Below are positions 23,965 through 51,040 of a stretch of DNA of 64,000 nt, one piece after another. Where the stretch lies: NCBI GenBank assembly GCA_016218925.1, contig JACRCR010000160.1:23677-87676 (forward strand), given 5' to 3'. Under the pieces are notes generated by a model, which saw only the letters and a list, made by a program, of their open reading frames with translations, made no database searches and was not told the origin of the DNA. Numbering within the stretch: position 1 is the first letter of the stretch; every line of letters starts with the position of its first letter. The translations under genes were made by a program, and so were the position numbers. This DNA is from Deltaproteobacteria bacterium. Its GTDB lineage: Bacteria; Desulfobacterota; Binatia; UBA1149; CAITLU01.

Positions 23965-23972
23965 GGAAGGCG

Positions 23973-31426: not shown

Positions 31427-31477
31427 GCGCCCGTGACTACGCCGTCGCGGCTGCTAACGGAAACCGGACCTGAAACG

Positions 31478-34400
31478 CTACAGTCCGGCAAGGACGTCGA
31501 GCAGGCGTTGCTGGTCGGTCCTGCCCTTGTCCAGGCACGCGGTGGCTCCAGCGGCGCGACTGCGTTCGAGTTCGTCCTGGGTGCACGCACCGGTGAGGAT
31601 GATCACCGGCAGCCGCTGCCACCGCGTCGAACGCCGGATCGCATCGGTGAGTCCGAACCCGTCCATGCCAGTCATGTTCACGTCGGTGATGACGGCGTCG
31701 ACGGTTTCGCGCTCGAGCAGGGCCAGCGCTTCTTCGCCGGAGGCCGCTTCGATCACTTGATAACCGGCTCTCGACAGCAGCCGCGCTTCCAGGACCCGCT
31801 CGTCGCGCGAATCGTCGACGATCAGGACTCGCCCCGCTCGTTCCCTACTCCGGCGTGTCTCGAGCAACTCGCGCACCTTGCGCAGCAACACGTCGGTCGG
31901 GCACGGCTTGGGCACGAATTCGCTCCCGGGTTCGAGCAGACCATGGCGCACGATGGCGTCGTCGGCGTACCCCGACATGTAGAGGATCCGTGTGCTGGGG
32001 CGCAGCGCGATCAACCGCTCGGCCAGTTGCGGTCCGCTGATCCCCGGCATCACGACGTCGGTGAGCAGCAGATCGATGTTTCCCTGGAATCGTCGAGCGA
32101 TCTCCAGGCCCTGCTCCCCATCGGCGGCGGGAAGCGTCCGGTAGCCGTGACTCTCGAGTATCCGGCGGACCACATCGCGAACCGCCGCCTCGTCTTCCAC
32201 CAGCAGGATGGTCTCCGTGCCTCCGATCGCCGTGGACGAGGACGTACGCTCGGCGGTCTCCACCGGAGCGTCGACGCGTGGAAGGTAGATGTTGAACGTC
32301 GTTCCTTGCCCTGGTTCGCTGTAGACGGCGATGTGCCCTCCGCTCTGCTTCACTATCCCGTGCACGGTGGCCAGCCCGAGCCCGGTACCCTTTCCGGGTT
32401 CCTTGGTCGTGAAGAACGGTTCGAAGATGCGCGCGAGGGTCTGCTTGTCCATGCCCTGACCGGTATCGGATATCGAGAACGACACGTACTTTCCCGGGCT
32501 GACATCGACGTGCGATCGCGCATACGCTTCGTCGAGCTCGGCTTCGCCGGTTTCGATAGTCAGCTTGCCGCCGTCCGGCATCGCGTCGAGTGCATTCAGC
32601 ACCAGATTCATCACGATCTGGTGCAATTGGTTGGGATCTACGCGAACGTGCCCGGACGGCGTTTTCGACACGATCGTCAGGTGGACATCCTCGGTGATCA
32701 GACTCGTGAGCATGCTCTCGATTCCGCGCAACTCGGTGTCGAGATCGAGCACCTTGGGTTGGAGGACCTGCTTGCGGCCGAAGGCGAGCAGCTGCGCGGT
32801 CAGCGCCGCCGAACGTCGAGCGGCATTGTGGATCTCACCGATGGGCCCCAGCATGGCAGGCTGGCCGCCGGCAGCGTCGGCAAGCAGGTCGCAGTACCCG
32901 TTGATCACGAAGAGCTGGTTGTTGAAGTCGTGCGCGATTCCCCCCGCCAGCCGTCCCACCGCCTCCATCTTCTCCGCCTGACGGAACCGTTCTTCGAGGC
33001 GCAGCCGCTCGGTGACGTCTTCCTTGATGGCGATGAAATGGCTGATGTGGCCTTCGTCATTGCGAACCGGAGTGATCGTCTGTCGCTCGGTGTACAGGCT
33101 ACCGTTCTTGCGGCGGTTGACGAGCTCTCCTTCCCAGATGTTTCCGGCCAGGATCGTGTCCCACAGGACTTTGTAGACGGAAACGTCCTGCAGGTCCGAC
33201 TTGAGAAGCTCGCGCGGGTTGCGGCCGATGGCCTCAGCCCAGCTATAGCCGCTGAGAGCGGTGAAGGCGGGGTTGACCCACTGGATCGCACCGTCGCGGT
33301 CGGTGATGACGATCGCGTTGCCCGCCGACTCCAGAGCGGAGCTCTGCAGGTGCAGCCGCTCCTCGGCCTGTTTGCGCTCGGTGGTGTCCGAGCGGATCGC
33401 GACGTATTGAAACGGCTTGCCATCGGCACCGAGAAACGGGACTACGGTGGTGTCTCCCCAGTTGATGGTTCCATCCCGGGCGCGGTTGGCGAGTTCGCCT
33501 TTCCACACCCGTCCGGCGCGCGTCGTAGCGCGTATCGAGCGCACGAACTCGGGTGAGTAAGTTCCGGGATCGATCAGGCGATAATCTTCACCGACGAGCT
33601 GCTCGCGAGCATACTTCGAGATCGCACAGAAGTTGTCGTTGACGTAGGTGATCTTACCCTTCGCGTCGGTTATCGCGACTATGGCGTGCTGGTCGAGAGC
33701 GAATTTCTGATCCCTCAGCTCGCGGACCACCGAGTCGGTGCGCGTCAGCGCGTCGTCGAGCGTGCGCGAGAGCGCACCGATCTCGTCATCTCCGGCGATC
33801 TCGCTCCAGTTCTCAGGAGCGTTCTCGTGGCGATGTTCGATGAGTTTCCCGATCTTCGCTATCGGGGCGAGGACCAGGCGGTTGAGCATCGCGTATCCGA
33901 GAGCGGACAGCAGCAGCAACGCCGAGAGCAGGGCGAGCGAGAACTCGACGGTCAGACGCCGGATCGCGGCCTGAGAGGGACGCAGATCGAGATGAACGAT
34001 TACCGCTCCATCGACCAGCGGTCCGGCCGCCAGTTCCGGCTGGCTGAGAAGCAGCGGCGACGTGAAGTCGAAACGACCGGTACCGCCGTGATAGTGGCTG
34101 GAGCTGTGCCTGGTGCGGACAGCTCTCGCGAAATCGTCTGCGGCATTGTCTACCGGCAATGTGTCAAGAGGTTCGCCGAGCCACGCCACACGCGTCGAGG
34201 CCATGATGCGAGCCGGATGGCCGCCGGCCACGATGATGAGGCTGACCTCCTTTTCCGCGCCGAGCGCGGTGACCACGCGCTGCAACTCACCCTGGCGCGA
34301 AATGCTCTCGGCCGCGTAGTTGAGCGAATTCGCCAGCAATTCGGCGCGTAGACGTACCTTGCTGATGACCAGGTTGCGCGACACCACGTAGGTACCCCAC

Positions 34401-34495
34401 ACACCGGCAAGCGACAGGGCAACGCCGACCACGATCAACGGTTGCAGGATCTTGCGCCTGAGCGAGCGCGCGACCGGGGTTGGTGCGGCCCTCAT
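31478..34495 (-). CDS. Hybrid sensor kinase (TM-periplasmic-HAMP-PAS-PAS-HisKA-HATPase-REC-REC)
   Basis: DEIGAL HAMP, AGGIAHDFNN, FEPFFTTK, GTGLGL, two receivers (LLTDVVMP; ITDVNM). Confidence 0.93.
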   Translation of the reverse strand: MRAAPTPVARSLRRKILQPLIVVGVALSLAGVWGTYVVSRNLVISKVRLRAELLANSLNYAAESISRQGELQRVVTALGAEKEVSLIIVAGGHPARIMASTRVAWLGEPLDTLPVDNAADDFARAVRTRHSSSHYHGGTGRFDFTSPLLLSQPELAAGPLVDGAVIVHLDLRPSQAAIRRLTVEFSLALLSALLLLSALGYAMLNRLVLAPIAKIGKLIEHRHENAPENWSEIAGDDEIGALSRTLDDALTRTDSVVRELRDQKFALDQHAIVAITDAKGKITYVNDNFCAISKYAREQLVGEDYRLIDPGTYSPEFVRSIRATTRAGRVWKGELANRARDGTINWGDTTVVPFLGADGKPFQYVAIRSDTTERKQAEERLHLQSSALESAGNAIVITDRDGAIQWVNPAFTALSGYSWAEAIGRNPRELLKSDLQDVSVYKVLWDTILAGNIWEGELVNRRKNGSLYTERQTITPVRNDEGHISHFIAIKEDVTERLRLEERFRQAEKMEAVGRLAGGIAHDFNNQLFVINGYCDLLADAAGGQPAMLGPIGEIHNAARRSAALTAQLLAFGRKQVLQPKVLDLDTELRGIESMLTSLITEDVHLTIVSKTPSGHVRVDPNQLHQIVMNLVLNALDAMPDGGKLTIETGEAELDEAYARSHVDVSPGKYVSFSISDTGQGMDKQTLARIFEPFFTTKEPGKGTGLGLATVHGIVKQSGGHIAVYSEPGQGTTFNIYLPRVDAPVETAERTSSSTAIGGTETILLVEDEAAVRDVVRRILESHGYRTLPAADGEQGLEIARRFQGNIDLLLTDVVMPGISGPQLAERLIALRPSTRILYMSGYADDAIVRHGLLEPGSEFVPKPCPTDVLLRKVRELLETRRSRERAGRVLIVDDSRDERVLEARLLSRAGYQVIEAASGEEALALLERETVDAVITDVNMTGMDGFGLTDAIRRSTRWQRLPVIILTGACTQDELERSRAAGATACLDKGRTDQQRLLDVLAGL

Positions 34496-35490
34496 AGCGG
34501 CGGCTCTTTACCGACGAAGATCGCGGTGAAAGCGTCACTGCGGCGATCGGCTCCTTTGATTTGTCCGCTCTGGCGCATCAGCCGGTCACAGGTGTCGATT
34601 GCGGCTGTGAGTTTTCCGCCCGGTCGCAGATAGTCGGCCTGATCGGACTCGAAGAGGCGTTTGGTGCCGCCCGTCAAAGCCTCGCGAAATTCCGCGGGCG
34701 TGATGTTCTCGCGGCCGGCCATTATCCGGTCGGCATCGTCCGGATAATGGTCTCGGTACGCGACAGCGCGATGATATGCGCGCAGCAGCTTGGCGATGTC
34801 AGCCGGGCGCCGGGCGTTGATCTCGGCCTCCACTGCGATGACGTCGAGCACTTCGCCGGGGATATCTGCAGTGGAGAAGATTTTGTGGGCCGCGCCGTCG
34901 CGCAGCAACCTGATCGAAGTTGGAGGGTAGGACACCACCGCGTCAGCTTCCCCTTTGCGAAAAACGTCGAGCATCGAGACTTGGTCCATCGGTACCGGCC
35001 TGACGTCGGCCAGCGTGAGTCCGTTTTTCTCGAGGGCGCGCCCGAGCACGTATCCGCCGAGCGACGCCGGTTCGATGGCAATGCGCGCTCCGCGCAAACC
35101 GACACCATCGGCGATGCCCGCGCGGGCCAGGATGACGTCCGCACCGTCGGAGTAGTCGACGACCTGTACGATCTGGGGCGAACGGTCGCAGTTGTCGCGG
35201 ATCTGCAGCACATCGATCACCGTCGTCGCGATGACGTCGATCTGGCCGCGTTCGTAACTACGCCGGGCATCGGACAGGCACGAAAACTCGACGATTCGCA
35301 GATCCAGCCCTTCGTCGCGGTAGAAGCCCTTCTCCTGGGCCAGATACAGGAACTCGTAGCCGGGCCACGGATTGATGCCCAGTCGCAGAGAAGGGGCGGC
35401 TTCCGGAGAACACCCGATGACGAACGAGAGTGCGGCGGTTGTCACCAACGGGCGAAGGTAGCGGGCGATCGGGTTGCGGGTCACCGGCAT
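34492..35490 (-). CDS. ABC-type substrate-binding lipoprotein (NMT1/THI5/SsuA-like)
   Basis: Lipobox VIGC, WPGYEFLYLAQEKG, DYSDGAD; 4-nt overlap with the kinase. Confidence 0.88.
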   Translation of the reverse strand: MPVTRNPIARYLRPLVTTAALSFVIGCSPEAAPSLRLGINPWPGYEFLYLAQEKGFYRDEGLDLRIVEFSCLSDARRSYERGQIDVIATTVIDVLQIRDNCDRSPQIVQVVDYSDGADVILARAGIADGVGLRGARIAIEPASLGGYVLGRALEKNGLTLADVRPVPMDQVSMLDVFRKGEADAVVSYPPTSIRLLRDGAAHKIFSTADIPGEVLDVIAVEAEINARRPADIAKLLRAYHRAVAYRDHYPDDADRIMAGRENITPAEFREALTGGTKRLFESDQADYLRPGGKLTAAIDTCDRLMRQSGQIKGADRRSDAFTAIFVGKEPPL

Positions 35491-35799
35491 TCTCCACGGC
35501 TCTCGCGCGCTGCCGCGACGGCGCGTCGATGAAGTTCACGCTGCTCGTGTCTGAGCGTCCGGCATATGCCCCAGCCGGGCGCGTGCCCCACGCATGTCGA
35601 GCCGCGGTCACTATAGTCTTCCTGAGGCGGATAATTGCAACGCTGTTCATCAAGCCGGCGCCGGACTTCCCTCACCTCGCTCGAGAGCCTATCGTTGTCT
35701 GCGTGGCAAGAGGCGAAGCGCGATCCGAGGGATACGAGAGGCGGTTATTGCAACGGAAGATCCAACGCTGATGGCCGCCGTTCCTGGGTGGGGCTAGAA

Positions 35800-37653
35800 A
35801 TGAAAGACGACCAAAGTATCAGCGGGTCTGTATCGGCGGTCCGACGTCGATTGATCGCGGATCGGAGCGGATTTCTTGTTCTGCACGTTGTCGTGCTGCT
35901 GCTTCTCGCGGCCCCCTCCGGCATCGCGCAGGAAGCGAGTCCATCTGCAAACGACGCGGGAGGCGCCGGCGCGCCGGCCGCGACGCCCGGTGCGCCGGTC
36001 GGCGCCGACATCGAAACGCTGCGAAAGCTGCTCGGAGTAGCGCCAGCCCCCAAGCCGCAGCCGGTGGTCGAGCCTGAAACGAAGCCGGAGCCTGCGGCGC
36101 CTGTTCCCGAGGCCGTGGAGCAGAAGCAAGAGGAGCCGGCCGCGGCGCCTGTGGCGGTGGAGCCTCCAGCCAAACCCGCCGAGGCCGAGGTGCAGGTGAA
36201 GGAGCCGGCCAAGGCGAAGCCCTCCAAGCCGGCGCCGTCGCGCCAACCGGCGCGGCCCGCAACCGTCAAGACCAAGCGACCGGCCCCGAAACCGGCTCCC
36301 GTTCGTCGTGTCGAGCCGGCCACGCCGAAGACAGTAGAGAAGCCGCCCGCCGAAGCGGCGGGCGGCGAAGCCGGACAACCGCAGGCCGAAGGCGCGAAGA
36401 CCGATCAGCAAGCAGCGCCGGCCCCCGCGCCGGTCGCCGCTGCGACCCCCGCTGAAGACCTGCCGTCCGAGGGGACGTTGGTGACCGGCAAGGATCTCGA
36501 GCGCTGGCGCCATCTGCTGGTGCCGGGACAGCAGTGGGCGCTGTCTCGCGGGGCGACCATGCGGGTGGTCAAGCGCGAAGTGATTCCGATGGAGCGTGCG
36601 CGCACCGAGGCCACAGAGCGCTATCACGCCCAGGTCAGCCTATCGGCGGATAGATTGCACGCAGAGAACTACGTGGCCGGCCTGCCGTTCCCGGTCGTCG
36701 ATCCGGAGGACCCCGACGCCGGCATCAAGCTGATGCTCGATTACGAGGCGCGAATCATCATTGACGACGTAGACGTGCGCAACTTCGCGTGCATGACCGG
36801 TGGGCTGGATCCGAAGCTGGGACTGCGCATCGAACGCGACTTCCGCAACGGGCACCTGCGGCGCCTCTCCTACGTCGGCCGCAACTACGTGCAGCCCAAA
36901 CCGACCTGGCACACTCCCGATGCGCTTCGCTCGCGAGAGGTGCTGCATCCGATAACGGAACCGTTCGACCTGAAAGGCGCCGGCTTCAGCTACACCCGCT
37001 TCCTGGATACCAGCCGTCCCGACGACTCGTGGTTGTACTATCCTCAGACCAAGCGGGTTCGTCGTTTGAGCACCGCGCAGCGTTCCGAGGGCGTGTTCGG
37101 ACAGGACATCGATCTGGACAGCTACGCCGGTTTTTCGGGTTCTCCGGCCTGGAGCGAGTGGCGCTTCCTCGGCGTCAAGACCGTCCTGGCCGTCATGCAC
37201 GCCGAGAATCTGCCACCGAAGTGGCTGTCGCCGCCGGCCGATTTCATGTTCGACGACGTCTGGGAGCCTCGCGAGGTGTACGTTCTGGAAGGCCGCTCGC
37301 GTCTGGCCGGGTACGCGTTCAGCCGCCGCATCATCTACCTGGACCGCGAGTCGTTCCTGATCCCGATGAACGAGATCTACGATCTCAAGGGCAACCTGTG
37401 GAAGTCCGAGATCCAATCCTGGAGGTTCGCGACCAAGCCGCGGCCGGAGGCGGTGCGGGCCGTTTACGACGACGTGCAGGGATTCATCCCGGGGATCACG
37501 ATGTTCGACATGCAGTTCAATCACGCGACTCGCTGTGAACTGCCGGCGCACGACGCGCCCGGCGAGGAAGGCTGGTACTACAACTTCGGCGACGCCGAAG
37601 GCACCACGGAGGAAGTCTTCATGGTGTCGGCTTTCATCGGTTCGGGACGTTGA
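35800..37653 (+). CDS. DUF1329-family periplasmic protein with a long Pro/Ala/Lys/Glu-rich N-terminal linker
   Basis: Signal peptide; YVAGLPFP, DDSWLYYPQTKRVRRLS, RIIYLDRE, YDLKGNLWK. Confidence 0.82.
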   Translation: MKDDQSISGSVSAVRRRLIADRSGFLVLHVVVLLLLAAPSGIAQEASPSANDAGGAGAPAATPGAPVGADIETLRKLLGVAPAPKPQPVVEPETKPEPAAPVPEAVEQKQEEPAAAPVAVEPPAKPAEAEVQVKEPAKAKPSKPAPSRQPARPATVKTKRPAPKPAPVRRVEPATPKTVEKPPAEAAGGEAGQPQAEGAKTDQQAAPAPAPVAAATPAEDLPSEGTLVTGKDLERWRHLLVPGQQWALSRGATMRVVKREVIPMERARTEATERYHAQVSLSADRLHAENYVAGLPFPVVDPEDPDAGIKLMLDYEARIIIDDVDVRNFACMTGGLDPKLGLRIERDFRNGHLRRLSYVGRNYVQPKPTWHTPDALRSREVLHPITEPFDLKGAGFSYTRFLDTSRPDDSWLYYPQTKRVRRLSTAQRSEGVFGQDIDLDSYAGFSGSPAWSEWRFLGVKTVLAVMHAENLPPKWLSPPADFMFDDVWEPREVYVLEGRSRLAGYAFSRRIIYLDRESFLIPMNEIYDLKGNLWKSEIQSWRFATKPRPEAVRAVYDDVQGFIPGITMFDMQFNHATRCELPAHDAPGEEGWYYNFGDAEGTTEEVFMVSAFIGSGR

Positions 37654-37766: not shown

Positions 37767-40328
37767 ATGGCCACACAGAGCGCACCGCGACCCCACCACG
37801 CCTTCAAGGAGCCGCACGGACTCTCGCCGCGCATCCAGTGGCTGCGCGACCACTACTTTCGCGGCCTGGGCCGTAGCTGGAACAACGAATTCACCTGCTG
37901 GACGACCGGTACGGCGTGGGACGTCGTCTACGACGAACTCGCCTACTACATCGTTCCCGAGACCTACGCCTTCTTTCAGACCTTCCGGTCCTCGACTCTG
38001 CAGGCGGCGCGTCCGGTTCCTCTCGAGGCCGACTTCTGGAATTGGAGTCTGCCCGAGCGGCGCGCGTGGCTGATCCGCAAGGTGATGGTCGACTGCGTGC
38101 CGCAGGAGGTGCTGCCCGGCGACCTGATAGCCGGAGCTCGGTTCAACATTCTGGTCTCGCGCGCCTGGACCAAGCGTGAGAGTGCGCGCCGCGATCGACT
38201 GGTCAACGGGCCGCACGCAATCCGCGCGGCGGTCAAGTGGTTCCACGAGCACGGCTACGGGAACAGCGGCGCCACTTCGGGTCATCTGATCCCGGGCCAC
38301 GCGCGCGCGTTGGAAATCGGCTGGAAGGGGATCCACGACGAGATCGAGAGCGCCTACGAGGCGCTGCCTGCGCGTGACAAGCGCGGCGCGAAAGGTGCCG
38401 AGCTGCGTGCGATGAAGACGGCCGCGACGATGTCTCGCGATGTCGCGGCGAAATATGCCGCGCTGTGCAGTCGCCTCGCCGATGAAGAAGCCGACCCGCT
38501 GCGCAAGTCCGAGTTGGTGGCGATGGCCGCCAACCTCGAGCGGGTTCCATGGCTGCCGCCGCGCAATTTCTGGGAGGCGCTGCAGGCACTGTGGATCAAC
38601 CACATGCTGATCATGAGCGACGAGAACTATCCGGGACCGGGCGTGAGCTTCGGCCGCATGGACCAGTACCTGCTTCCGTACTGGCAGCGCTCGCTCGCCG
38701 AAGGCATGGACCGCGAGTTCGGCAAGGAACTCCTCGAGTGTTTCTGGGTGCACGCCAACACCGCCTATGACGCGATGATCAGGATGGGCGGCAACCAGGG
38801 CATCACCGCGGGCTTCGGGCAGTTGATCAGTCTGTCCGGACTCGGCGCCGATGGGCGCGACATGACCAACGACCTCACCTACGCGATCCTCGAGGTCGTC
38901 GACGCGATGTCGCCGATCCTCGAACCCAAGCCCAACGTGCGGCTGCACCGCGGCACACCCGAAGTGCTGCTCGACAAGGTAGTCGAGATGATAGCCGCGA
39001 GTCAGGGCGCACCGTTTCTGCTCAACTTCGACGAACGCTCGATGGCCGGTATGCTGCGCGAGGCCAGGATGGCCGGCTGCGAGCACCTCATCCACGAAGG
39101 CAACGTACACGAGTACGCGTCGGTGGGTTGTCTGGAGAACACGATGGTCGGCAACGACCGATCGGGGACCGTCGATAGCAATCTCAACCTGCTGAAAGCC
39201 GTCGAACTGGCGCTGACCGGTGGCTGCGATCTGGTCCCGGCCGTGGATCCGCTCACCGGCAAGGCGGCGCGGATTACGCGCGACGGCGCGCATACGCCGC
39301 AGGCCGCTGACTTTGCCGGTTGGGAGGACTTCTGGGCGGCCTACGTCGAGCAGACCCGCGCGATCGTGCGGCGCTGTGTGGACCTCTACGAGCGCAGCGA
39401 GGCCGCGCGTGCGCAGTTCAGCCCGACGCCGTATCTGTCGTGTCTGGTCGGCGGATGCATCGAGCGCGGACTCGATATCACGCGGGGAGGCGCGGAGCTG
39501 AGCTTCACGACTATCGAGGCGGTCACGTTTGCGACCACGGTCGATTCGTTGCTGGCGATCAAGTACCTGGTGTTCGACGCCAAGAAAGCGACCATGATCG
39601 AACTGGTGCGGGCTCTGCGCGACAACTGGGAGGGGCACGAGACGCTGCAGGCGTGGGCCAAGTTCCGCGCGCCCAAGTACGGGCGCGACGACGACAGCGC
39701 CGACGCGATGGCACGCGACGTGATGACGGTGTGGACCGAGGAGACCTGGCGGCATCGCACCCGCTCTACCGGGCGCCAGTTCCGTCCGGGCATGCTGAGC
39801 TGGAACTACTGGGTGGGCGACGGCTACGTAATGGCCGCCAGCGCCGACGGACGGCCCAAAGGACGCTTCCTGTCCAACGCGATATGTCCTTCCAACGGAG
39901 CAGATACCAACGGCCCCACCGCCAACGCGAACTCGGTCGGCAAGGCGCTCGGTGGCAGGGCGCCCGCCGCCCGCGTTTCGGGCAGCGCCAAGGCCGGCGC
40001 GAAGCCCGGGGACTTCGGCGACTGGCAGGACTACGTCAACATGCTGCCCAACGGCGCCAGCCACACGATGACGTTCAGCCCGGCGCTGCTCCGGGACGCC
40101 GAGCACCGCGAGAAATTCAAGGCTTTTCTGCGCGGCTACTGCGAGAATGGCGGCACCGCCTTGCAGGTAAACGTGCTCGACGTCGAGACGCTCAAGGACG
40201 CGCAGAAACATCCCGAGGATTACCGTCACCTGCTGGTGCGCGTGACGGGCTACAATGCTTACTTCACGAGCATCGGCCGCGAGCTGCAAGACGAGATAAT
40301 CGCGCGCGAGATGCACCAGCAGATGTAA
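37767..40328 (+). CDS. Glycyl radical enzyme (PFL superfamily), subclass unassigned
   Basis: SFGRMDQYL.P, Cys loop SVGCLE (Cys455), PKYG.DD, ASADGR, Gly loop LVRVTGY (Gly828). Confidence 0.93.
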   Translation: MATQSAPRPHHAFKEPHGLSPRIQWLRDHYFRGLGRSWNNEFTCWTTGTAWDVVYDELAYYIVPETYAFFQTFRSSTLQAARPVPLEADFWNWSLPERRAWLIRKVMVDCVPQEVLPGDLIAGARFNILVSRAWTKRESARRDRLVNGPHAIRAAVKWFHEHGYGNSGATSGHLIPGHARALEIGWKGIHDEIESAYEALPARDKRGAKGAELRAMKTAATMSRDVAAKYAALCSRLADEEADPLRKSELVAMAANLERVPWLPPRNFWEALQALWINHMLIMSDENYPGPGVSFGRMDQYLLPYWQRSLAEGMDREFGKELLECFWVHANTAYDAMIRMGGNQGITAGFGQLISLSGLGADGRDMTNDLTYAILEVVDAMSPILEPKPNVRLHRGTPEVLLDKVVEMIAASQGAPFLLNFDERSMAGMLREARMAGCEHLIHEGNVHEYASVGCLENTMVGNDRSGTVDSNLNLLKAVELALTGGCDLVPAVDPLTGKAARITRDGAHTPQAADFAGWEDFWAAYVEQTRAIVRRCVDLYERSEAARAQFSPTPYLSCLVGGCIERGLDITRGGAELSFTTIEAVTFATTVDSLLAIKYLVFDAKKATMIELVRALRDNWEGHETLQAWAKFRAPKYGRDDDSADAMARDVMTVWTEETWRHRTRSTGRQFRPGMLSWNYWVGDGYVMAASADGRPKGRFLSNAICPSNGADTNGPTANANSVGKALGGRAPAARVSGSAKAGAKPGDFGDWQDYVNMLPNGASHTMTFSPALLRDAEHREKFKAFLRGYCENGGTALQVNVLDVETLKDAQKHPEDYRHLLVRVTGYNAYFTSIGRELQDEIIAREMHQQM

Positions 40329-40345
40329 GGGTCGTCGGGTCGAAC

Positions 40346-41338
40346 GTGACGGGATCTGACTGCTCCGCGCCGCTCGTCAGGACGGCAACCGTCCTGAACA
40401 TCCAGAGGATGTCGACCGAAGACGGCCCCGGCCTGCGCACGACGGTGTTCTTGAAAGGCTGCAGCCTGCAGTGTTCGTGGTGCCACAATCCAGAAGCGAT
40501 GTGCATGGGCCCGCAACTGGTCTGGCACTCGAGCAAGTGTATCGGCGCGGGAGCCTGCGAAGCCGTCTGTCCTGAAGATGCGATCGTGCGACGCGATGGC
40601 ACCATCATCGTCGATTCGGCTCGGTGCACGTTGTGCGGCGACTGCGTGGAGGGATGTCCGTCGGCGGCGATGGAGATCCTCGGGACCGTCTGGGAGCTGG
40701 ATGCGCTGGTCGCGGAGGTCGCCAAGGATCGCAGCTATTTCGACATCTCGGGCGGCGGAGTCACGATCTCGGGCGGCGAACCGGGGCTGCAGGCGCCGTT
40801 CGTCGGCGCGTTCCTCGATCGCTGCCGCGCGCTCGGGCTCGGCACTGCGGTCGACACGGCAGGGCTGATCTCGCGCACTGCGCTGGTCGAACTGGCCCGG
40901 CGCAGCGATGTCGTGCTCTACGACCTCAAGGAAATCGATTCGGGTCGGCACGCCTGCGTGACCGGTCAGCCTAACGAGCGCATTCTGGGCAATGTGATCG
41001 CACTGGGAGAACTGATGCGCGCCGAGGGATGTCCACGCGACCTGTGGATCCGAACGCCGCTGATCCCCGGCGTGACCGCGACCGAAGAGAACCTGCGAGG
41101 CATCGGCGCGTTTCTCGCCGAGCACCTGGCCGGGGTCGTCTCGCGCTGGGAACTGTGCGCGTTCAACAACCTCGCGGCAGACAAGTACGGACGTCTGGGT
41201 CTGGAGTGGCCGTTTCAGGGCGTACCGTTGCTGACCCGGCAGCAACTGCGCGACGCCGAGAATGTCGCGCGTGACTCGGGCGTGGATCCCGCCATCGTCA
41301 TCGCCACCGGACGCACCCGTGTCGGAGAAGGCGAGTGA
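40346..41338 (+). CDS. GRE-activating enzyme (radical SAM with ferredoxin insert)
   Basis: IQRMSTEDGPGLRTTVFLKGCSLQCSWCHNPE, GGVTISGGEP, RTPLIPG. Confidence 0.93.
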   Translation: MTGSDCSAPLVRTATVLNIQRMSTEDGPGLRTTVFLKGCSLQCSWCHNPEAMCMGPQLVWHSSKCIGAGACEAVCPEDAIVRRDGTIIVDSARCTLCGDCVEGCPSAAMEILGTVWELDALVAEVAKDRSYFDISGGGVTISGGEPGLQAPFVGAFLDRCRALGLGTAVDTAGLISRTALVELARRSDVVLYDLKEIDSGRHACVTGQPNERILGNVIALGELMRAEGCPRDLWIRTPLIPGVTATEENLRGIGAFLAEHLAGVVSRWELCAFNNLAADKYGRLGLEWPFQGVPLLTRQQLRDAENVARDSGVDPAIVIATGRTRVGEGE

Positions 41339-42255
41339 GCGTCGAGACGGCGACAGCACGGGAGGTGGATAGCGTGACAGCCAGCGCAGCTCTAGGCGAA
41401 GACGCCGTGCGCGCGTTCGAGAACGACGCCAAGATCGCGTTGCTCGCCACTCTCGACGCCGATGGCAAACCCCACCTCAGCCTCATCACGTCGCTGCAGG
41501 CGCGAACTCCCGGCGAACTGATGTTCGGCCAGTTCAGCGAGGGACTGAGCAAGCAGCATCTTCGCGCGGATCCGCGCGCCGGCTTCCTGGTGATGAGCAA
41601 GGACCGCCGAATATGGCGCGGGAGCGCACGGTGGACCCACGCCGCCAAGCACGGTGACGAATACGAACTCTACAACCAGAAACCGATGTTCCGCTACAAC
41701 GCGTACTTCGGCATCCACACCGTGCATTATCTCGACCTCGTCGCACTCGGTGGCGAGGAAAAGTTCGATGCGGGGTCGTTCGTGCGTGGACTGCTGACCA
41801 CCTCGCTGGTGCGCCGCCTGGTCGGCGGCAGCGCTGGCGAGCGCATCTTGACGCCGTGGGCCGAGCGGCACATCGGCCGCGCGCGCACGCTGAAGTTCCT
41901 CGCTTACGTGGGCGGCGACGGGTACCCGGCGATCATCCCGCTGGTGCCGTGTCTGCCGGCTGACAGCGCCCGCCTGGTCGTCGCCGGCTCGGTGCACCCC
42001 GGCGAGTTCGATGCGCTCGGCCGCGGGACCACTTGCGCGCTCTACGCACTGAACCTCGAAATGGAGAGCGTGCTCGTGCGCGGGCGCTGGTCGGGGGTCG
42101 GCCGCTACGCCGGTCTGCGAGCCGCGACGCTCGACATCGACTGGGTCTACAACTCGATGCCTCCGAGCCACGGCGTGATCTATCCTCCTACCGTGCTCTC
42201 TCCCGTCACCGAGTCGGACTACACAGCGGCTGATCCTCAATCCTCCGGCATATGA
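41335..42255 (+). CDS. Pyridoxamine-5'-phosphate-oxidase-like (flavin split-barrel) protein, two tandem domains
   Basis: KIALLATLDADGKPH in the N-half, LKFLAYVGGDGYP in the C-half; GTGA/ATGA overlaps on both sides. Confidence 0.72.
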   Translation: MSVETATAREVDSVTASAALGEDAVRAFENDAKIALLATLDADGKPHLSLITSLQARTPGELMFGQFSEGLSKQHLRADPRAGFLVMSKDRRIWRGSARWTHAAKHGDEYELYNQKPMFRYNAYFGIHTVHYLDLVALGGEEKFDAGSFVRGLLTTSLVRRLVGGSAGERILTPWAERHIGRARTLKFLAYVGGDGYPAIIPLVPCLPADSARLVVAGSVHPGEFDALGRGTTCALYALNLEMESVLVRGRWSGVGRYAGLRAATLDIDWVYNSMPPSHGVIYPPTVLSPVTESDYTAADPQSSGI

Positions 42256-43577
42256 CCGAGGTTCCGTCCGACCACACGTTGCCGCCGCGGGCGTTCCACT
42301 TGCTCGCCAAGCCGACCGGTGCGATCTGCAATCTCGACTGCGACTACTGCTTCTTCCTCTCCAAGGAGTCGCTCTATCCCGGCAGCCGCTTCCGGATGGC
42401 GGACGAGCTGCTCGACTCCTACATCCGCCAGCTGATCGGGGCTCAGCAGTGCCAGGAGGTGTCGGTGGCGTGGCAGGGCGGAGAACCGATGCTGATGGGT
42501 TTGGACTTCTTCCGCCGGTCCATCCAGTACCAGAACAAGTATCGCCGGCCCGGGATGACGATCTCGAACACCATCCAGACCAACGGCACGCTGATCGACG
42601 ACGAGTGGGCCGCGTTCTTCGCCGAGAACGACTTCCTGGTCGGCATCAGCATCGACGGTCCACGCGGGATGCACGATGCCTACCGGCGCGACAAGGCCGG
42701 CGAGCCGACCTTCGATCGCGTCGTTCGCGGTCTCGACCTTCTTCGCGATCACGGCGTGGAGTTCAACGCGCTGGTGACGCTGCACCGCGCCAACGCCGAC
42801 CATCCGCTCGAGGTCTACCGCTTCCTGCGAGATGACCTGGGCATACGGCACATCCAACTCATCCCGATCGTGGAACGCGTGGCCGAGAGCGAAACCGGCG
42901 AAGCGGCGGCGGGAGAGCACGGCGAGCGAGGCGCTGACACGTACGGGAGCGATCGGCCGCCGCGCACCCAACGCGGCGATGCGGTCACCGAGCGCTCGAT
43001 CACGGCAGAGCAGTACGGTCGCTTCCTGATCGCGATCTTCGAGGAGTGGGTCCGCCGCGACGTAGCGGAAGTCTACGTCGATCTGTTCGATGTCGCGCTC
43101 GCCAATTGGATGGGAGAACCGTCCGGTTCCTGCGTCTTCTCGCCGACCTGCGGGCTCGCTCTGGCGATGGAACACAACGGTGACGTGTATTCGTGCGACC
43201 ACTTCGTGGAGCCCGAGTACTTGCTTGGCAACATCGCCGACACACCGATGAGCGAGCTGGTCGCATCGACCAGGCAGCGCAGGTTCGGCCACGACAAACT
43301 CGACACGCTGCCAGACTACTGCCGTCGCTGCTCGGTGCGCTTTGCCTGTCATGGCGGCTGCCCCAAAGACCGGTTCGTCCTCACTCCGGACGGCGAGCCG
43401 GGACTGAACTACCTGTGCGCCGGATACATGGCGTTCTTCGAGCACGTCGACAGGCCGATGCGCATCATGACCGAGCTGGCGCGCCGAAGACGCGCGCCGG
43501 CCGAGATCATGCAGCTATATGCCGCCGAGGACGCCGAACGCGATGCCGCGCGCATTGCTCCCTCGACGCGCTGTTAG
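42252..43577 (+). CDS. Anaerobic sulfatase-maturating enzyme (radical SAM/SPASM)
   Basis: AKPTGAICNLDCDYC, WQGGEP, IQTNGTL, SCDHFV, C..C....CHGGCPKDR, NYLC.GY. Confidence 0.93.
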   Translation: MTEVPSDHTLPPRAFHLLAKPTGAICNLDCDYCFFLSKESLYPGSRFRMADELLDSYIRQLIGAQQCQEVSVAWQGGEPMLMGLDFFRRSIQYQNKYRRPGMTISNTIQTNGTLIDDEWAAFFAENDFLVGISIDGPRGMHDAYRRDKAGEPTFDRVVRGLDLLRDHGVEFNALVTLHRANADHPLEVYRFLRDDLGIRHIQLIPIVERVAESETGEAAAGEHGERGADTYGSDRPPRTQRGDAVTERSITAEQYGRFLIAIFEEWVRRDVAEVYVDLFDVALANWMGEPSGSCVFSPTCGLALAMEHNGDVYSCDHFVEPEYLLGNIADTPMSELVASTRQRRFGHDKLDTLPDYCRRCSVRFACHGGCPKDRFVLTPDGEPGLNYLCAGYMAFFEHVDRPMRIMTELARRRRAPAEIMQLYAAEDAERDAARIAPSTRC

Positions 43578-45967
43578 ACGCGGATCCCGAGCGCTTGCAG
43601 GAAGCGCATGCTTTCGAGCGGCGTGAAGGGCGCCGGGTCGATGTCGAAGCGCGCGCGCAGCAGCTTTCCCTGGAACGGATTGGCGCCCTTGTACAGCGTG
43701 GAGACCTGGTTGCCGAGGTCGGCCCCGAGCGAGAAGCCGTCGTAGGAAGTCACCAGCAGCACCCGATTGAAGGTGTGTTCGGCCACCTTGCGGTCGCCGA
43801 TGTACAGCGAGCCCGTGCCCTCGAATGGCCGCGCCGTCATCTTCTGCACGTACCGCACGGTGAGCGGTCCGTCCGGCAGCGTTTCGCTCGACTCGATGCG
43901 TTCGACGAACGGGACCGCGCTCTGCTCGTAGCGCAGCTTGCCGCCGTGGATGAAGAACGTGTAGCCCGCGTGCTTGGAGCCGCAGGCCAGCAGCACGCCG
44001 TCGCCGCGGCCGGGCGCGCGCTCGATGTCGACCGTGATCGTGTGGTCGCAGCCGGCGATGTACGGCGAGGTGTGCGCGGACAGCCGCTCCACCGGAGGGT
44101 GGAACTCCCACACCTTGCGCGTGCCGCGGCGCTGGCGGTCCTGCGCCATCTTGATGATCAGGTTGCGATCGTCGAGCGGGAAGGCCCCGTACTTCTCGGC
44201 GTCCTTCGTCCACCTGGCGACCATCTCGCTGACTTTGTCGGGCATCTTCGCGGCGAGGTCGTGGAGTTCGTTGGGATCCTTGGACAGGTCGTAGAGCTCC
44301 CAGACATCGTCCTCAAACGGCTTGCCGCGCTCGTGGCGGGTTACCAGGCGCCAGTTGCCGTCGAGGTAGGCGCGCTGGCCGCCCAGTTCGAAGTACTGCG
44401 AGGTGCGCGTCGGCGCCGCCGCGTCCGTGAAGGTCGCGACGATGCTCGCGCCTTCCAGCGGCTTCAGCCTGCGGCCACGGTAGACGTCGGGCCTCTTCAC
44501 TCCCACCGCCTCCAGGATCGTCGGGTACAGGTCGATCACGTGGACGAAGTTGCGGCGGACCTGTCCGCGTGCCGCGATCTGTTTCGGCCACGAGATGATC
44601 AGCGGGTCGGCCACTCCGCCGAGGTGCGTGTACTGCTTGTACATGCGAAAAGGCGTGTTCGACGCGCACGACCAGCCGATCGGGTAGTGGGGGAAGGTCT
44701 CGTCCTGTCCCATCGTGTCGTAGAACTCGGCGGCTTTCTCGACCGGGATCGGATAACCGAGCGCTGAGGCCAGTACATTCGGCGTTCCGGTCGGCGTGCC
44801 CTCGGCCGAAGCGCCGTTGTCGGAGAGCAGTACGACGAGCGTGTTCTCGCGCTCGCGGATCTCTTCGAGCGAAGTGAGCAACCGGCCGATGTTGGCGTCG
44901 AGACTGGAGACCAGGCCGGCGTAGACTTCCATGTAGCGGCTGTAGACGCGCCTTTCGATGTCAGTGAGCGTGTCCCAGGGCTCGGCGCCGGGCGACAGCG
45001 GCGGCAGCTCGCTGGTTTCGGGCACGACACCGAGTTTGCGCTGGCGCTCGAGCCTCGCCTTGCGCACTACGTCCCAGCCCTGGTCGTACATCCCGTGGTA
45101 GGCATCGCGATCGCGCGCGCGCACCTGCAGCGGCGAGTGCGCGGCGGGGTAGGCCACCTGGAGGAAGAACGGCTTGTTGGGGGTGAGCGTCTTCTGCGTG
45201 CGAACGTAAGCGATCGCGCGGTCGGTGAGGTCGTCGAGTGCGTAGTAATCGTCCTTCTCGGCATGCTCGACGGGGCTGACTCCGTCGATCAATTCGGAAG
45301 GCTTGAAGTAGTCGGTGGAGTGCCCCTGGAACCAGAATGCGCGTTCGAAGCCGCGGTTGGTCGGCCAGTTGTGGTACGGACCGACCGCGCTGCACGAGGC
45401 CGCCACGTTCATGTGCCACTTGCCGACGTGCAGCGTGGACCAGCCGGCGTCGCGCAGGACTTCCGCCGTGGTGGCCGCCTCCAAGGTGAGGTCGCCGCGG
45501 TATCCGGGGTAGCCGCTGTCGAGGTCGGCGAGCCAGCCCATGCCGGCCGAGTGATGGTTGAGGCCGGTGTTGAGCGCCGCCCGCGTGGGCGAGCACATCG
45601 CGCAGGTGCGGAAGTTCGTGTACTGCAGGCCGTCCTTGGCCAGTGCGTCCATGTTCGGAGTGCGGATCTCGCTGCCGTAGACGCCCAGGTCCGAGAAGCC
45701 GACGTCGTCGATGACGATCACCACGATGTTGGGGGCACCGGCCGGGGCCTCCAACTCGCCCGCGTAGGCTGGACGCGAGTCCGCGAACGATTCGGCGACC
45801 TCGGCGGCCTGGCCCGCGCCAACCGCCTCGGGCGTGCGCAGTTTGCGGGTCTTCTCCTGCACGGTGAGCAGGCCCTTTGCGCCGAGGGCTGTCACCACCG
45901 CGCCTCCGGTGGCGCCGATCAGGAAAGAGCGCCGGTCGATCCGTTTGCTGTTGCCGTCGTCCGCCAT
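43574..45967 (-). CDS. Arylsulfatase (Cys-type, Tat signal)
   Basis: IDRRSFL twin-Arg, PNIVVIVIDDVGFSD, CSPTRAALNTG FGly motif, GKWH, SDNG. Confidence 0.93.
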   Translation of the reverse strand: MADDGNSKRIDRRSFLIGATGGAVVTALGAKGLLTVQEKTRKLRTPEAVGAGQAAEVAESFADSRPAYAGELEAPAGAPNIVVIVIDDVGFSDLGVYGSEIRTPNMDALAKDGLQYTNFRTCAMCSPTRAALNTGLNHHSAGMGWLADLDSGYPGYRGDLTLEAATTAEVLRDAGWSTLHVGKWHMNVAASCSAVGPYHNWPTNRGFERAFWFQGHSTDYFKPSELIDGVSPVEHAEKDDYYALDDLTDRAIAYVRTQKTLTPNKPFFLQVAYPAAHSPLQVRARDRDAYHGMYDQGWDVVRKARLERQRKLGVVPETSELPPLSPGAEPWDTLTDIERRVYSRYMEVYAGLVSSLDANIGRLLTSLEEIRERENTLVVLLSDNGASAEGTPTGTPNVLASALGYPIPVEKAAEFYDTMGQDETFPHYPIGWSCASNTPFRMYKQYTHLGGVADPLIISWPKQIAARGQVRRNFVHVIDLYPTILEAVGVKRPDVYRGRRLKPLEGASIVATFTDAAAPTRTSQYFELGGQRAYLDGNWRLVTRHERGKPFEDDVWELYDLSKDPNELHDLAAKMPDKVSEMVARWTKDAEKYGAFPLDDRNLIIKMAQDRQRRGTRKVWEFHPPVERLSAHTSPYIAGCDHTITVDIERAPGRGDGVLLACGSKHAGYTFFIHGGKLRYEQSAVPFVERIESSETLPDGPLTVRYVQKMTARPFEGTGSLYIGDRKVAEHTFNRVLLVTSYDGFSLGADLGNQVSTLYKGANPFQGKLLRARFDIDPAPFTPLESMRFLQALGIRV

Positions 45968-46371
45968 GTCGATTCCTCGGGCGGACGGCCTGACAGGCGG
46001 CGTCCGCATTGCTGGTTGAGAAAGTGAAAAATTTGCCCGGGTGGCGGTCAGAGCCTGGGCTGCGTCGAGTTGCCCGAGTCCGACGCGCCCTTCCGAGGCG
46101 GCCCACCATGCCTGCGTTCCGATCGCGTGACAACGCTTCGTCGCCCGGTAGGGCGAGACCTCGATCATCCGACCCACTCGAGGTCCGTCTCGGGAGCTTG
46201 CTGCGACATCGCTCCGTGCGGTGGTTCTGCGAAGACGCCTGCCGCGGCGAGCCGGTGGCGCAGGGGCATCGCCCTCAGCCGCGACAAGCGCTCGCAAGAC
46301 AACCTCTCTCCCTGACATCGCCACCGCACCGGGATAGGATCCGAGCGAAAACGTTGGAGCGGGGTGTCGCC

Positions 46372-49300
46372 ATGAGGGGATTTCGGTGTCACGCGCACGG
46401 GGAACGTGCGAACACGTCTCGGGCCTTCGGCCGCGTGCGCCTGTTGTGGGGCGGACTGCTGTTGCTCGGTGTTCTCGCCGCGCCGGCGACCGCCGCCGCG
46501 GTTTGCGGCGACGCGATACTAGACCCTAGCGAAGAGTGTGATCCGGGCGGCGGCACCTACGTCGACGGCGACCCGGCCAACGGTTCGTGTAGTACCGGCG
46601 GCGACTGCTTCTACGAATTCAGTTGCTGCAAGTTCAACTGTCAGTTCGTCGGCGAGGGTGCGACCTGCTTCGACGACAATCCGTGCACGACCGCCGATCA
46701 ATGCGACCAGGTCGGCAACTGCGGCGGCAACAACGTACCTGACGGCGGGCTCTGCGATGACGGATTGTTCTGCACGGTCGGCGACCAGTGCACCGCCGGG
46801 GTCTGCTCGGGGCCGGCCTACGATTGCAGTGACTCCAACGTGTGTACCGACGACTCGTGCAACGAAGCCGCCGATTCGTGCTCGAACGTGCCGAACGCCG
46901 TGGCGTGCGACGATGGCCTGTTTTGCTCGACCGGCGATCAGTGTTCGGGCGGCGCCTGCTCGGGGACGGCGCTCAGTTGCGACGATTCGAACGCCTGTAC
47001 GGACGACTCGTGCGACGAGGTGGGCGACGCCTGCATCAACGCGAACAACGCCAATGCCTGCGACGACGGCCTGTTCTGTACGGTGAGCGATGCCTGCACC
47101 GGCGGCCTCTGCACCGGCCCGGCCCGCGACTGCGGCGACTCCAACGCGTGCACCGACGACTCGTGCAACGAAGCGGGGGACGTCTGCATCAACGCCGACA
47201 ACGCCGACCCGTGCGACGACGGCCTGTTCTGCACGGTGAGCGACGCGTGCGCGGGCGGCGTCTGCACCGGCGCGGCGCGAGACTGCGGCGATGCCAACGT
47301 CTGTACCGACGACGTGTGCGATGAAGGCACAGCCGCGTGCAGCAACCCGAACAATACCGCCGCTTGCGATGATGGTCTGTTCTGCACGGCCACCGATAGC
47401 TGCTCGGCCGGCGCATGCGTGGGAAGCGGCAACGGCTGCGACGATGCCAATGCCTGCACCGACGATACCTGCATCGAGGTCGGGGCTCTGTGCCTGTACG
47501 CGAACAACGCGGCGGCGTGCGACGATTCCGACGCTTGCACGACGCTCGATACCTGCTCGGGCGGCGTGTGCGTGGGCGGTCCGGCGCTGGTGTGCGACGA
47601 CGCCAACATCTGCACCGACGACTCGTGCAGCCCCTCGCTCGGGTGCGTCTTCGACGGCAACGGGATTTCGTGCGACGATGGGCTCTTCTGCACGCTGAAC
47701 GACCGTTGCCGCGCCACCGTGTGCTCGGGCGCCGCGCGCGACTGCGGCGACGGGAACATCTGTACCAGCGATTTCTGCGACGAGGCCGGCTCGGCCTGCG
47801 GCAGCGCGTTCAATACCGTCGAGTGCGACGACGGCGACGCCTGCACGGTCGACGACCGCTGCAGCGGCGGCTCGTGCGTGCCTGGCGCGGCCATGACGTG
47901 CGACGATTTCAACGTCTGCACCGACGAGGCTTGCGATCCGAGCGTTGGATGCCAGTTCTTCTCCAACTCCCTGGCGTGCGACGACGCCGATCCTTGCACG
48001 CCGGCCGATACCTGCGTGGCGGGCGCCTGCCAGGGCAGCGGCTCGCTTTGCGGCAACGGGATCGGCGACGGCGGCTGCGGTGAGACCTGCGACGACGGCA
48101 ACATCGCCGACGGCGACGGCTGCTCCGGCGCGTGTCAGCTCGAGCTTCGCGCGGAGCTGTCGCTGGCCAAGGTGGACGATTTCGACCCGGTTCTTCCGGG
48201 CGGCCTCCTCACATACACGCTGGCGTACTCGAACAGCGGCGAGGCCCCGCTGACGGGCGTTGTGGTGTCCGATCTGGTCGATCCCAGTACTACGTTCTTT
48301 GCGGCGCAGCCGGCGCCCGACGATGGCACGCAGGATCGCTGGACGATCGGCGCGCTCACACCCGGACAGAGCGGTAGCATCCAAGTCACGGTGGTCGCCG
48401 GCGCCGATCTCGGCGACGGCGACATCCTGCTCAACGCAGCCGAGATCGCTGCCGACGACGGCACGCTCGCACAAGCTACCGAGTCGACAGCGGTGTCGGC
48501 GAGCGTGAGCACGGCGCTGCTTCGGGTCGACGTCGCTCCGTATCTTGCGTCGTCGCGCGCGCCGGGATCGCTGATCTACGCGGTGTTCTATCGAAACGAG
48601 GGCTCGGACACGGCGGTGGCGGCAACGCTCGCGTTGGAGTTCCCCGCCGGCATGACTTTCGGTGGCGCCACGTTGGCGCCGGCGTCGCAATCGCAGGCGA
48701 CTGCGTCGTGGTCGCTCGGGGACCTCGAGCCGGGCGCGCGCGGGGGCTTCGTAGTTGCGGCGCGCGTGACCTCGGGTCTCGCCGCTGGCACCTCGCTGGC
48801 GGCGTGCGCGCAGCTCAGCGGTCTTGCGCCGGAGGGGGCCCTGGACGGGCCGGGTCTGCATGGCGGTTCCTGTGCGACCGCGAACGTCATCGGGCAGTGC
48901 GATCTGTGGTTCGCCAAGACGCACGAGCCGGTCGCGACCCTGCCCGGCGTAACCGGCGCGGTGTTGTCGCCGGCGGCGACCGCTCCGGTTGGTGCCGGCG
49001 GCGATGCGCTGGCGCGAGCTTCCGTCCGGGTGCTGGCGTCGCGTCTGTCGGGTAAGCAGCGGGCGCTGGTGATGCGTGCCGTCGATCCGCCGCACACGGC
49101 GACCGTCGCAGGCAACCGCAACGCGCGCGCCGGCGGCGGTGTGAGCTACTCGATCCGTTACAAGAACATCACGGTCACCAATTCTCTCGACGTCACGGTT
49201 GCGGATGCCGTCACGCTGACGCTGATCGCTCCGGCGCCGGCGTCGAGGGTGGGAAACTCGCTTCATTGGGACAACCTGGTGTCGCCGAGCGGCGCGGTGG

Positions 49301-51026: not shown

Positions 51027-51040
51027 AACGAATGTTCGTT
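51027..51040. promoter_or_regulatory. Putative TetR operator next to a sigma70-like promoter
   Basis: Inverted repeat AACGAA-TG-TTCGTT; TTGACG (50995) and TAAAAG (51019) upstream. Confidence 0.6.

Follow-up and report, generated by a model that had tools for sequence, protein, structure and literature searches.

Glycyl radical enzymes (GREs) were surveyed in a review of June 2026 (PMC13450708), whose accessible text counts six C–O eliminases, CutC, three C–S lyases and three isomerases. The same text names no flavoprotein-like or split-barrel partner for any GRE, and describes whole clades as still unannotated. Here we analyse a GRE gene in a 64,000-nucleotide stretch of contig JACRCR010000160.1 (hereafter the window), from a Deltaproteobacteria bacterium of the Binatia. 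The GRE gene is followed by genes for a radical SAM activase and for a protein made of two split-barrel domains, which we call the partner. On balance, we favour the view that GRE, activase and partner form a widespread and self-contained cassette, present here in one copy, with eliminase-type chemistry and with the partner acting together with the GRE. No description of this GRE family, or of any GRE with a split-barrel partner, was found in the literature outside subscription-only papers.

Comparison with characterised glycyl radical enzymes

The ATG start codon of the GRE gene is preceded by GGAGG 7 nt upstream, and the protein matches the Pfam families PFL-like (E 4e-115) and Gly_radical (E 2e-24). 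As stated in an original prediction made from the DNA, the 853-residue product has a single-cysteine loop, SVGCLE (residues 452–457, containing Cys455 and Glu457), and a glycyl radical motif, RVTGY (residues 825–829, containing Gly828). The codons for Cys455 and Gly828 lie at 39129–39131 and 40248–40250. The activase gene starts at GTG 40346, 17 nt past the GRE stop codon as predicted, and its product scores 277 bits against TIGR02494 (cut-off 174) and carries a CX3CX2C motif and two ferredoxin-like cysteine clusters. The RVxG motif, the cysteine loop and an activase above the TIGR02494 cut-off place the enzyme in the GRE superfamily, and C455-L-E457 has the CXE pattern of the 1,2-eliminase/isomerase class. 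In an alignment of 63 family sequences, 236 of the 853 positions are invariant; these include RVTGY and GCLE as well as R673, W679, Y681 and F350. H173, C455 and E457 are identical in all 63 core sequences and are kept in the sister family described below (C455-L-E457 in all 14 sister sequences). His173 aligns with His164 of glycerol dehydratase (GD) and His160 of HypD. Judged by these residues, the predicted enzyme is shown to be intact, with a complete radical relay consisting of Gly828, Cys455 and a dedicated activase.

The original prediction left the GRE without a subclass, and this was borne out by profile scores that are all far below the curated NCBIfam cut-offs. The GRE scores 392.3 bits against the PFL2-3 subfamily model TIGR01774 (cut-off 678.2), 358.9 bits against the HypD model NF043068 (cut-off 1100), 335 and 344 bits for HpsG and HpfG with the C–S lyase models NF048011 and NF048009 (cut-off 1000), and 297.1 bits against the CutC model TIGR04394 (cut-off 1050). 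The pyruvate formate-lyase (PFL) model TIGR01255 gives 90.9 bits (cut-off 994.2) and matches the glycyl domain only; the cysteine pair of PFL is replaced by Gly454-Cys455. The best solved relatives, at about 30% identity, are HypD (E 6e-82), Archaeoglobus fulgidus PFL2 (2F3O, E 4e-79), IseG (5YMR, E 4.7e-79), propanediol dehydratase (PD) and CutC, whereas BSS (E 1.7e-41), MASS (E 2e-47) and PFL are much weaker. A fold search ranked the structures as the sequence search did; it did not discriminate between the eliminases, and placed BSS and MASS last.

Each of these relatives resembles the window GRE in its catalytic residues and differs from it elsewhere. GD (DhaB1/DhaB2, 1R8W) and the PDs (5I2G, 9RCO–9RCR) occupy the top Foldseek ranks (TM 0.67–0.73). 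Like the window GRE they have a single cysteine in G-C-x-E with the glutamate, a histidine at GD position 164 and a two-cluster activase encoded directly downstream. However, they are only 21–30% identical to it, the GRE falls below the cut-off of their PFL2-3 model, and they lack a split-barrel partner; most loci of the window family are without microcompartment genes or a dhaT-type context. The diol-pocket residues are also replaced, with GD H281/S282/F333/Y339/D447/Y640 corresponding to P291/G292/G345/G351/V469/L677. HypD (6VXC/6VXE) is the best sequence match among solved structures, and the equivalents of its Cys434, Glu436 and His160 are kept, but all six of its hydroxyproline-binding residues, as given in the accessible part of PMC7077986, are changed (D278/S334/D339/F340/Y450/T645 to P291/G345/F350/G351/N472/W679). 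IseG/IslA and HpsG belong to the CXE class and show comparable overall similarity, but the Arg/Gln/Arg residues that anchor the sulfonate in C–S lyases (PMC13450708, accessible text) are not conserved: IseG R187/Q191/R676 correspond to A169/H173/G675, the first two by gap-free extrapolation past the end of the alignment. This argues against the hydroxysulfonates that had been considered as substrates.

A. fulgidus PFL2/PflD, an orphan of debated function, has the second-best PDB match and a similar E-N-Y stretch before the β-1 loop, but it is no closer to the window GRE than the eliminases are. We know of no split-barrel partner for this protein.

These residues were mapped from printed HMMER alignments and a MAFFT alignment that included Clostridium butyricum GD. 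The GD residue numbering agreed with the C. butyricum sequence at 10 of the 10 positions checked. None of the HypD, GD or IseG/IslA substrate-binding sets is kept, and the alignments show the family, so far as such comparisons go, to belong to no characterised GRE family.

Accessory subunits known for other GREs (BSS beta and gamma, HPAD gamma, MASS delta) resemble the partner in being small extra proteins that are encoded with a single radical enzyme and are particular to it. They are small Fe-S or rubredoxin-like proteins according to the accessible text of PMC13450708, whereas the partner is a tandem split barrel of about 280 residues. The gaps within the cassette are 17 nt and at most 35 nt, and therefore leave no room for small-subunit genes such as those for the beta and gamma subunits of X-succinate synthases. 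A Pfam scan of 48 window open reading frames (ORFs) found no microcompartment or small-subunit genes, in agreement with the original prediction. The comparisons thus far support a predicted single-cysteine, CXE-type (eliminase/isomerase-like) GRE that is uncharacterised and has no small subunits.

The predicted Ala/Gly/Lys-rich insertion proved to be shorter than proposed. The stretch GGRAPAARVSGSAKAGAKPGDFGDW is present at residues 729–753, but only about 14 residues (approximately 737–750) are inserted relative to the family. They lie in the linker ahead of the glycyl radical domain, where the confidence of the AlphaFold 2 model is low. The nearest relative (locus L001, GRE 89% identical) has 11 such residues and the other 61 aligned family members have none. 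We therefore rejected the insertion as a family feature.

The conserved three-gene cassette and its surroundings

A scan of one genome per species yielded 79 related loci, from Desulfobacterales, Smithella, Binatia, Myxococcota, Spirochaetota, Leptospirales, Chloroflexota and others, which were compared with the window proteins by tblastn. The GRE is 64–89% identical across phyla. The protein collection contains more than 120 clusters (90% identity) of relatives that are 69–88% identical, most of them annotated as formate C-acetyltransferase. An activase lies beside the GRE in 66 of the 79 loci, a partner match was found in 61, and the partner is present in 54 of the 56 loci having at least 2300 nt after the GRE gene. 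The order GRE, activase, partner is invariable across the core loci. The three genes are shown to have been passed on as one set, their order unchanged, in many phyla, and they alone make up the conserved unit. No relative above 31% identity was found in the plasmid collection. In one delta-proteobacterial metagenome-assembled genome (MAG), the GRE, activase and partner regions share a single 1570-codon frame (L078:7935–12647) in which the GRE match is broken (residues 1–647 only); it looks like a decaying, fused cassette.

The third gene had been predicted to encode a tandem flavin-type split-barrel protein, and its two halves do align with each other (hhalign probability 97.7%, E 1.8e-12). 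The AlphaFold 2 model consists of two barrels (pLDDT 88, pTM 0.85), and PNPOx_N matches the N-terminal half with 32.8 bits (gathering threshold 28.1). Foldseek matched the partner to single PNPOx, FMN, F420 and haem split barrels with TMt 0.7–0.79. The Foldseek probability was 1.0 for 2HTD, HupZ, and F420 and FMN proteins, and the identity to the fold matches was 13–20%. One of these matches is PhdC, a split-barrel (PNPOx-fold) cofactor maturase that works on behalf of another enzyme. The partner therefore has the split-barrel fold of PNPOx-like FMN-binding proteins, and the modelled fold is flavin-type. A profile search against PDB sequences gave marginal matches only (Rv2991, E 0.007; HupZ, E 0.03), and a protein-atlas search found nothing beyond the partner's own family.

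The partner family contains 441 clusters at 50% identity, nearly all of 270–300 residues. Across 47 homologues from the core and sister families, the only invariant polar residues are R120, Y121, N122 and Y124, in an RYNxY motif (numbered from GTG 41335). The original prediction gave 4-nt overlaps on both sides of the gene; the ATGA overlap with the gene for the anaerobic sulfatase-maturating enzyme (anSME) is real, whereas the GTGA overlap with the activase gene exists only if translation starts at GTG 41335. GTG 41374 has GGAGG 6 nt upstream and corresponds to the start of a 293-residue database protein (P0124). In another database protein, P0244 (624 residues, from a single 8263-nt contig), a complete activase (residues 18–324) and a complete partner (residues 350–622) are joined by a 25-residue linker. 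This may be a real fusion or the result of a lost stop codon.

Profiles of the partner and the GRE were searched in 401 genomes of the host's phylum. With the partner profile, 26 genomes gave 27 strong matches (at least 339 bits); about 20 further matches were full-length but weak. Core GREs (at least 1490 bits) were found in exactly the same 26 genomes, one of which has two copies of each gene, and second-tier GREs (430–957 bits) in 24 more. When the wider clade is counted, the GRE is present in 50 genomes, the partner in 47, and the two together in 46. The four genomes with only the GRE all carry second-tier GREs, a tier in which the partner model has little power, and the one genome with only the partner has a 51-bit fragment.

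Of 20 loci around the weak partner matches, 18 hold a GRE that is 43–50% identical to that of the window and the other two end at contig ends. These loci define a sister family, in which the gene order is mostly GRE, activase, partner. In two of them (L089 and L091) the partner gene directly follows the GRE gene, at a distance of 56–100 nt, and no activase was found in the locus. The sister GREs share the motifs GH, (D/A)E(N/S)YPGPG, NQGI..FGQL, VGCLENT, LSWNYW and RVTGYNAYF, and their linker ahead of the glycyl domain is short or missing. Median identities to the window proteins in the core and sister families, respectively, are 68% and 46% for the GRE, 52% and 44% for the activase, and 45% and 26% for the partner.

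In a quick IQ-TREE analysis (39 rows, LG+G4, PflB as outgroup), which with four characterised references is smaller than a full network analysis, the core and sister GREs form one clade ('GCLENT / SWNYW') with an SH-aLRT value of 100 and a stem length of 0.94. The clade is apart from annotated HypD, C. butyricum GD, E. coli YbiW and the host's four other full-length GRE paralogues. Tight clustering with a characterised GRE, together with retention of its substrate residues, would have counted against an unassigned subclass; the window GRE instead lies in a separate clade with the residue sets replaced.

The host genome encodes at least six PFL2-type GREs and has only one partner match. At least five further PFL2-type GREs are on contigs C193, C130, C207, C107, C227 and C128 (L080–L086), and four of them score below every curated cut-off. 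Another of them is split over two contig ends; this partial gene resembles HpsG (900.6 bits over 691 of 821 positions), and its activase is on C128.

The neighbourhood of the cassette is more variable. In 42 of the 71 loci with at least 1000 nt of upstream sequence, the gene immediately before the cassette encodes a GntR/FadR-type regulator on the same strand. This is not so in the window, and one query of the host genome (94% complete) found no cassette-type GntR. Here and in L001 the place of the regulator is taken by a divergent sensor block (29384–35490, minus strand), of which the hybrid kinase and the NMT1-like protein of L001 are 59% and 65% identical to those of the window. The NMT1-like protein has a match in 1 of the 79 loci. 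DUF1329 has none, and is absent between the NMT1-like gene and the GRE gene in L001; it was rejected as a cassette member. The sole recurrent metabolic neighbours are a same-strand aldehyde:ferredoxin oxidoreductase (AOR) gene in five Desulfobacterales-type loci (L034, L044, L051, L052 and L055) and, in four of these five, an Fe-alcohol dehydrogenase (ADH) gene, found in a scan of 118 downstream ORFs. An aldehyde dehydrogenase gene is upstream of the cassette in L038. No conserved transporter or pathway beyond AOR and ADH was found among the 118 downstream ORFs, among 45 upstream ORFs in loci without GntR, or by clustering of ORFs of at least 90 residues from the 79 core and 20 sister loci.

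The original prediction also placed the anSME in the operon and proposed a product of the neighbouring sulfatase as a possible GRE substrate. Neither idea survives the comparison of loci. The anSME itself is clearly assigned (485.6 bits against TIGR03942, cut-off 349.45, with Radical_SAM and SPASM matches in Pfam). However, despite the ATGA overlap an anSME match was found in 0 of the 79 loci, and a sulfatase match in only 4, weakly, at 24–29% identity. In L001 a UvrD gene comes immediately after the partner gene, and the window counterpart of this UvrD gene (86% identical) lies at 60510–62552. The region 42252–60500 (approximately 18 kb), including the anSME and sulfatase genes, is therefore a local block, missing from L001 either through insertion here or through deletion there. 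Past Met119 of its long ORF the sulfatase carries a Tat signal (RRSFL); it also has the Cys-type formylglycine motif C-S-P-T-R, and beyond Sulfatase and SGSH_C no family match was found in its C-terminal 200 or so residues (approximately 700–916 of ORF 43574–46324). A Cys-type sulfatase in an anaerobe requires an anSME, so the two genes explain each other without the GRE; the sulfatase is likely to be the client of the anSME. The locus comparison shows the two to be a separate functional pair, placed beside the cassette in this lineage.

Proposed chemistry and alternative explanations

By analogy with its class, the likeliest chemistry for the GRE would be β-elimination, with a hydroxylated substrate that exceeds a C3 diol in size. 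The activase would generate a radical on Gly828, the radical would move to Cys455, and the thiyl radical would take a hydrogen from the hydroxyl-bearing carbon of the substrate. Glu457 and His173, which alignment shows to be the putative acid/base pair of the 1,2-eliminase/isomerase class, would deprotonate the hydroxyl and protonate the leaving group on the adjacent carbon. Cleavage of the C–O bond (or, less likely, a C–N bond) would give a carbonyl product, an aldehyde or ketone, after return of the hydrogen. Four bulky side chains of the GD pocket (H281, S282, F333 and Y339) give way to proline or glycine in the window GRE, and the invariant Arg673, Trp679, Tyr681 and Phe350 are at substrate-binding strand positions, which leads us to expect a substrate larger than a C3 diol and probably an anionic or carboxylated one. 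The usual FadR/GntR-type regulator would fit such a substrate, and a carbonyl product would fit the AOR gene in five loci, the ADH gene in four of them and the aldehyde dehydrogenase gene in L038. We consider it most likely that the partner works on the GRE or together with it, as a putative accessory subunit, cofactor carrier or product handler; a role as general electron donor appears less likely.

Several points weigh against this interpretation. The chemistry is drawn from three conserved residues and analogy with the class. The AlphaFold 2 model of the GRE has pLDDT below 50 at active-site elements (residues 289–291, 333–351, 454–468, 679–724 and 823–853), and was therefore not used for the pocket; the residue mapping, with its two extrapolated IseG positions, thus rests wholly on alignments at about 30% identity. 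With only four invariant polar residues in the partner, a conserved flavin site is not evident. The fusion in P0244 points to the activase and away from the GRE, and two of the 56 loci with enough downstream sequence depart from the pattern without a visible remnant: L070 has GRE and activase without a nearby partner, and L062 has the GRE alone. The co-occurrence in 26 of 26 genomes overstates the support, because related genomes are not independent. Aldehyde-handling neighbours are present in about 7 of about 71 loci, and most neighbourhoods are unrelated. Finally, ATGA coupling makes local co-expression of the anSME with the partner likely, although not a functional link between them.

The fusion and the gene order are also the starting point for a different role of the partner, as a dedicated low-potential electron donor (a substitute for flavodoxin) that feeds the two auxiliary [4Fe-4S] clusters of the activase and touches neither GRE nor substrate. 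The partner gene directly follows the activase gene, the activase has two ferredoxin-like clusters, and the partner fold is of the flavin, F420 or haem type, including similarity to the Desulfovibrio FMN-binding protein. We nevertheless consider such a donor rather unlikely. The other GRE and activase systems of the host, at least five in number, manage without such a partner, and L089 and L091 have the partner right after the GRE and no activase; both observations tie the partner to the GRE. L070 has an activase but no partner nearby, the fusion is known from one single-member cluster and could reflect a lost stop codon, and few polar residues of the partner are conserved. A further possibility, in which the partner would be an obligate GRE subunit that docks through the RYNxY loop and supplies a flavin-type cofactor or a bound co-substrate, seems to us doubtful, and less probable still. 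If it were true, the GRE could catalyse a reaction with a net redox change or take a large, cofactor-like substrate, and a cofactor-coupled class, spread from sediment bacteria to Asgard archaea, would be added to the GRE superfamily.

Other explanations concern the GRE itself. It is very unlikely to be a hydrocarbon-activating X-succinate synthase or an alkane-related GRE. Such a role has been proposed for PflD-like GREs of Archaeoglobus and Hermodarchaeota, the single-Cys GREs of Hermodarchaeota being read as Ass/Bss in the accessible part of PMC8163825, and the present family is found in, among other hosts, Smithella and Desulfosudis oleivorans MAGs. In the window, the GRE gene is preceded by the gene for the LolA-like DUF1329 protein, and a beta-oxidation-type cluster is present at 11–17.6 kb; the accessible part of PMC12583861 describes two expressed proteins of a limonenylsuccinate synthase operon, LssP ('putative PNPOx') and the LolA-like LssQ. 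However, the CXE glutamate and the dehydratase histidine are invariant, BSS and MASS are far weaker matches than the eliminases and come last in the fold search, the cassette has no room for beta and gamma subunit genes, and none of the 79 loci has DUF1329. That the GRE acts on a sulfatase product (a desulfated alcohol or hydroxysulfonate), with the anSME as a true member of the pathway operon, is highly improbable, and is largely refuted by the neighbourhood data. The ATGA coupling, the convergent sulfatase gene, the SsuA-like binding protein in the divergent sensor block, and TauE-type exporter genes at 57768–58580 and after the cassette in L058 would suit it, but the anSME and sulfatase counts, the absence of the whole block from L001 and the loss of the sulfonate-binding residues do not. 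In addition, the host has its HpsG-like GRE elsewhere, and an anaerobe with a Cys-type sulfatase requires an anSME anyway. Least credible of all is a pyruvate or 2-oxoacid formate-lyase, as in most database labels ('formate C-acetyltransferase' or 'pyruvate-formate lyase'). High conservation across phyla does suggest a central metabolite, and Imachi et al. 2020 (PMC7015854, accessible part) invoke 2-oxoacid-formate lyases for Asgard strain MK-D1; but the first cysteine of the PFL pair is Gly454 in 63 of 63 sequences, the TIGR01255 score is about a tenth of its cut-off, and PFL structures match the glycyl domain only.

The cassette matters beyond this locus. Members of this large, highly conserved family routinely carry the label pyruvate formate-lyase, hydroxyproline dehydratase or alkylsuccinate synthase, so that a wrong reaction stands at this gene in metabolic models of sediment anaerobes, syntrophs and possibly Asgard archaea. 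Once identified, the substrate and the role of the partner would bring either a reaction or an architecture that is new. The present analysis shows the absence of the anSME/sulfatase block from L001, the sister family with its own divergent partner and the strict co-occurrence of core GRE and partner in 26 of 26 genomes; alignments give the invariant RYNxY motif and a residue-by-residue exclusion of HypD, GD and IseG specificity. The link between GRE and sulfatase is an accident of local gene order, and it is the cassette itself, an intact member of an uncharacterised family, that is of real interest.

Other genes of the window

The window lies on contig C54 of a host genome of 4.66 Mb in 245 contigs, and its G+C content is 63–71%. 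The sequencing runs listed as containing the stretch are of groundwater metagenome DNA, with no RNA runs among them. The features around the cassette are given in the table.

Table. Features of the window in and around the GRE cassette
Feature	Position (nt)	Strand	Assignment
PAS/GAF histidine kinase	29384–31426	−	Pfam
Hybrid kinase-receiver	31478–34495	−	Pfam
NMT1/SsuA-like binding protein	34492–35490	−	Pfam; SsuA_fam 104 bits, below cut-off 163.5
DUF1329/LolA-like protein	35635–37653	+	Pfam; directly upstream of GRE
GRE, 853 aa	37767–40328	+	PFL-like and Gly_radical
Ala/Gly/Lys-rich insertion in GRE, about 14 residues (approximately 737–750)	39975–40016	+	Family alignment
Activase, radical SAM	40346–41338	+	TIGR02494
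Tandem split-barrel (PNPOx-like) partner	41374–42255 (alternative start GTG 41335)	+	PNPOx_N, AlphaFold 2, Foldseek
anSME, radical SAM/SPASM	42252–43577	+	TIGR03942
Cys-type sulfatase, convergent	43574–45970 (ORF to 46324)	−	Sulfatase, E 1e-51
DUF11 protein, 1612 aa	46009–50847	+	Pfam

Besides the anSME, sulfatase and DUF11 genes, the block 42252–60500 holds a dozen more genes, among them those for an LCM-type methyltransferase, an ABC1 kinase, a LysR regulator with a TauE-type exporter, and an AIR-synthase-related protein. Further upstream in the window, the beta-oxidation-type cluster (11137–17633 and 9470–10123) encodes a thiolase, an acyl-CoA synthetase, two acyl-CoA dehydrogenases, an enoyl-CoA hydratase and a TetR regulator. 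A second LolA-like protein and a MacB/FtsX-type permease are encoded at 21760–25214. At 6514–9341 (minus strand), the genes for an FGGY-family kinase and a saccharopine-dehydrogenase-like protein share 4 nt, and an acetoacetate decarboxylase-family gene at 28533–29303 (minus strand) adjoins the sensor-kinase block.

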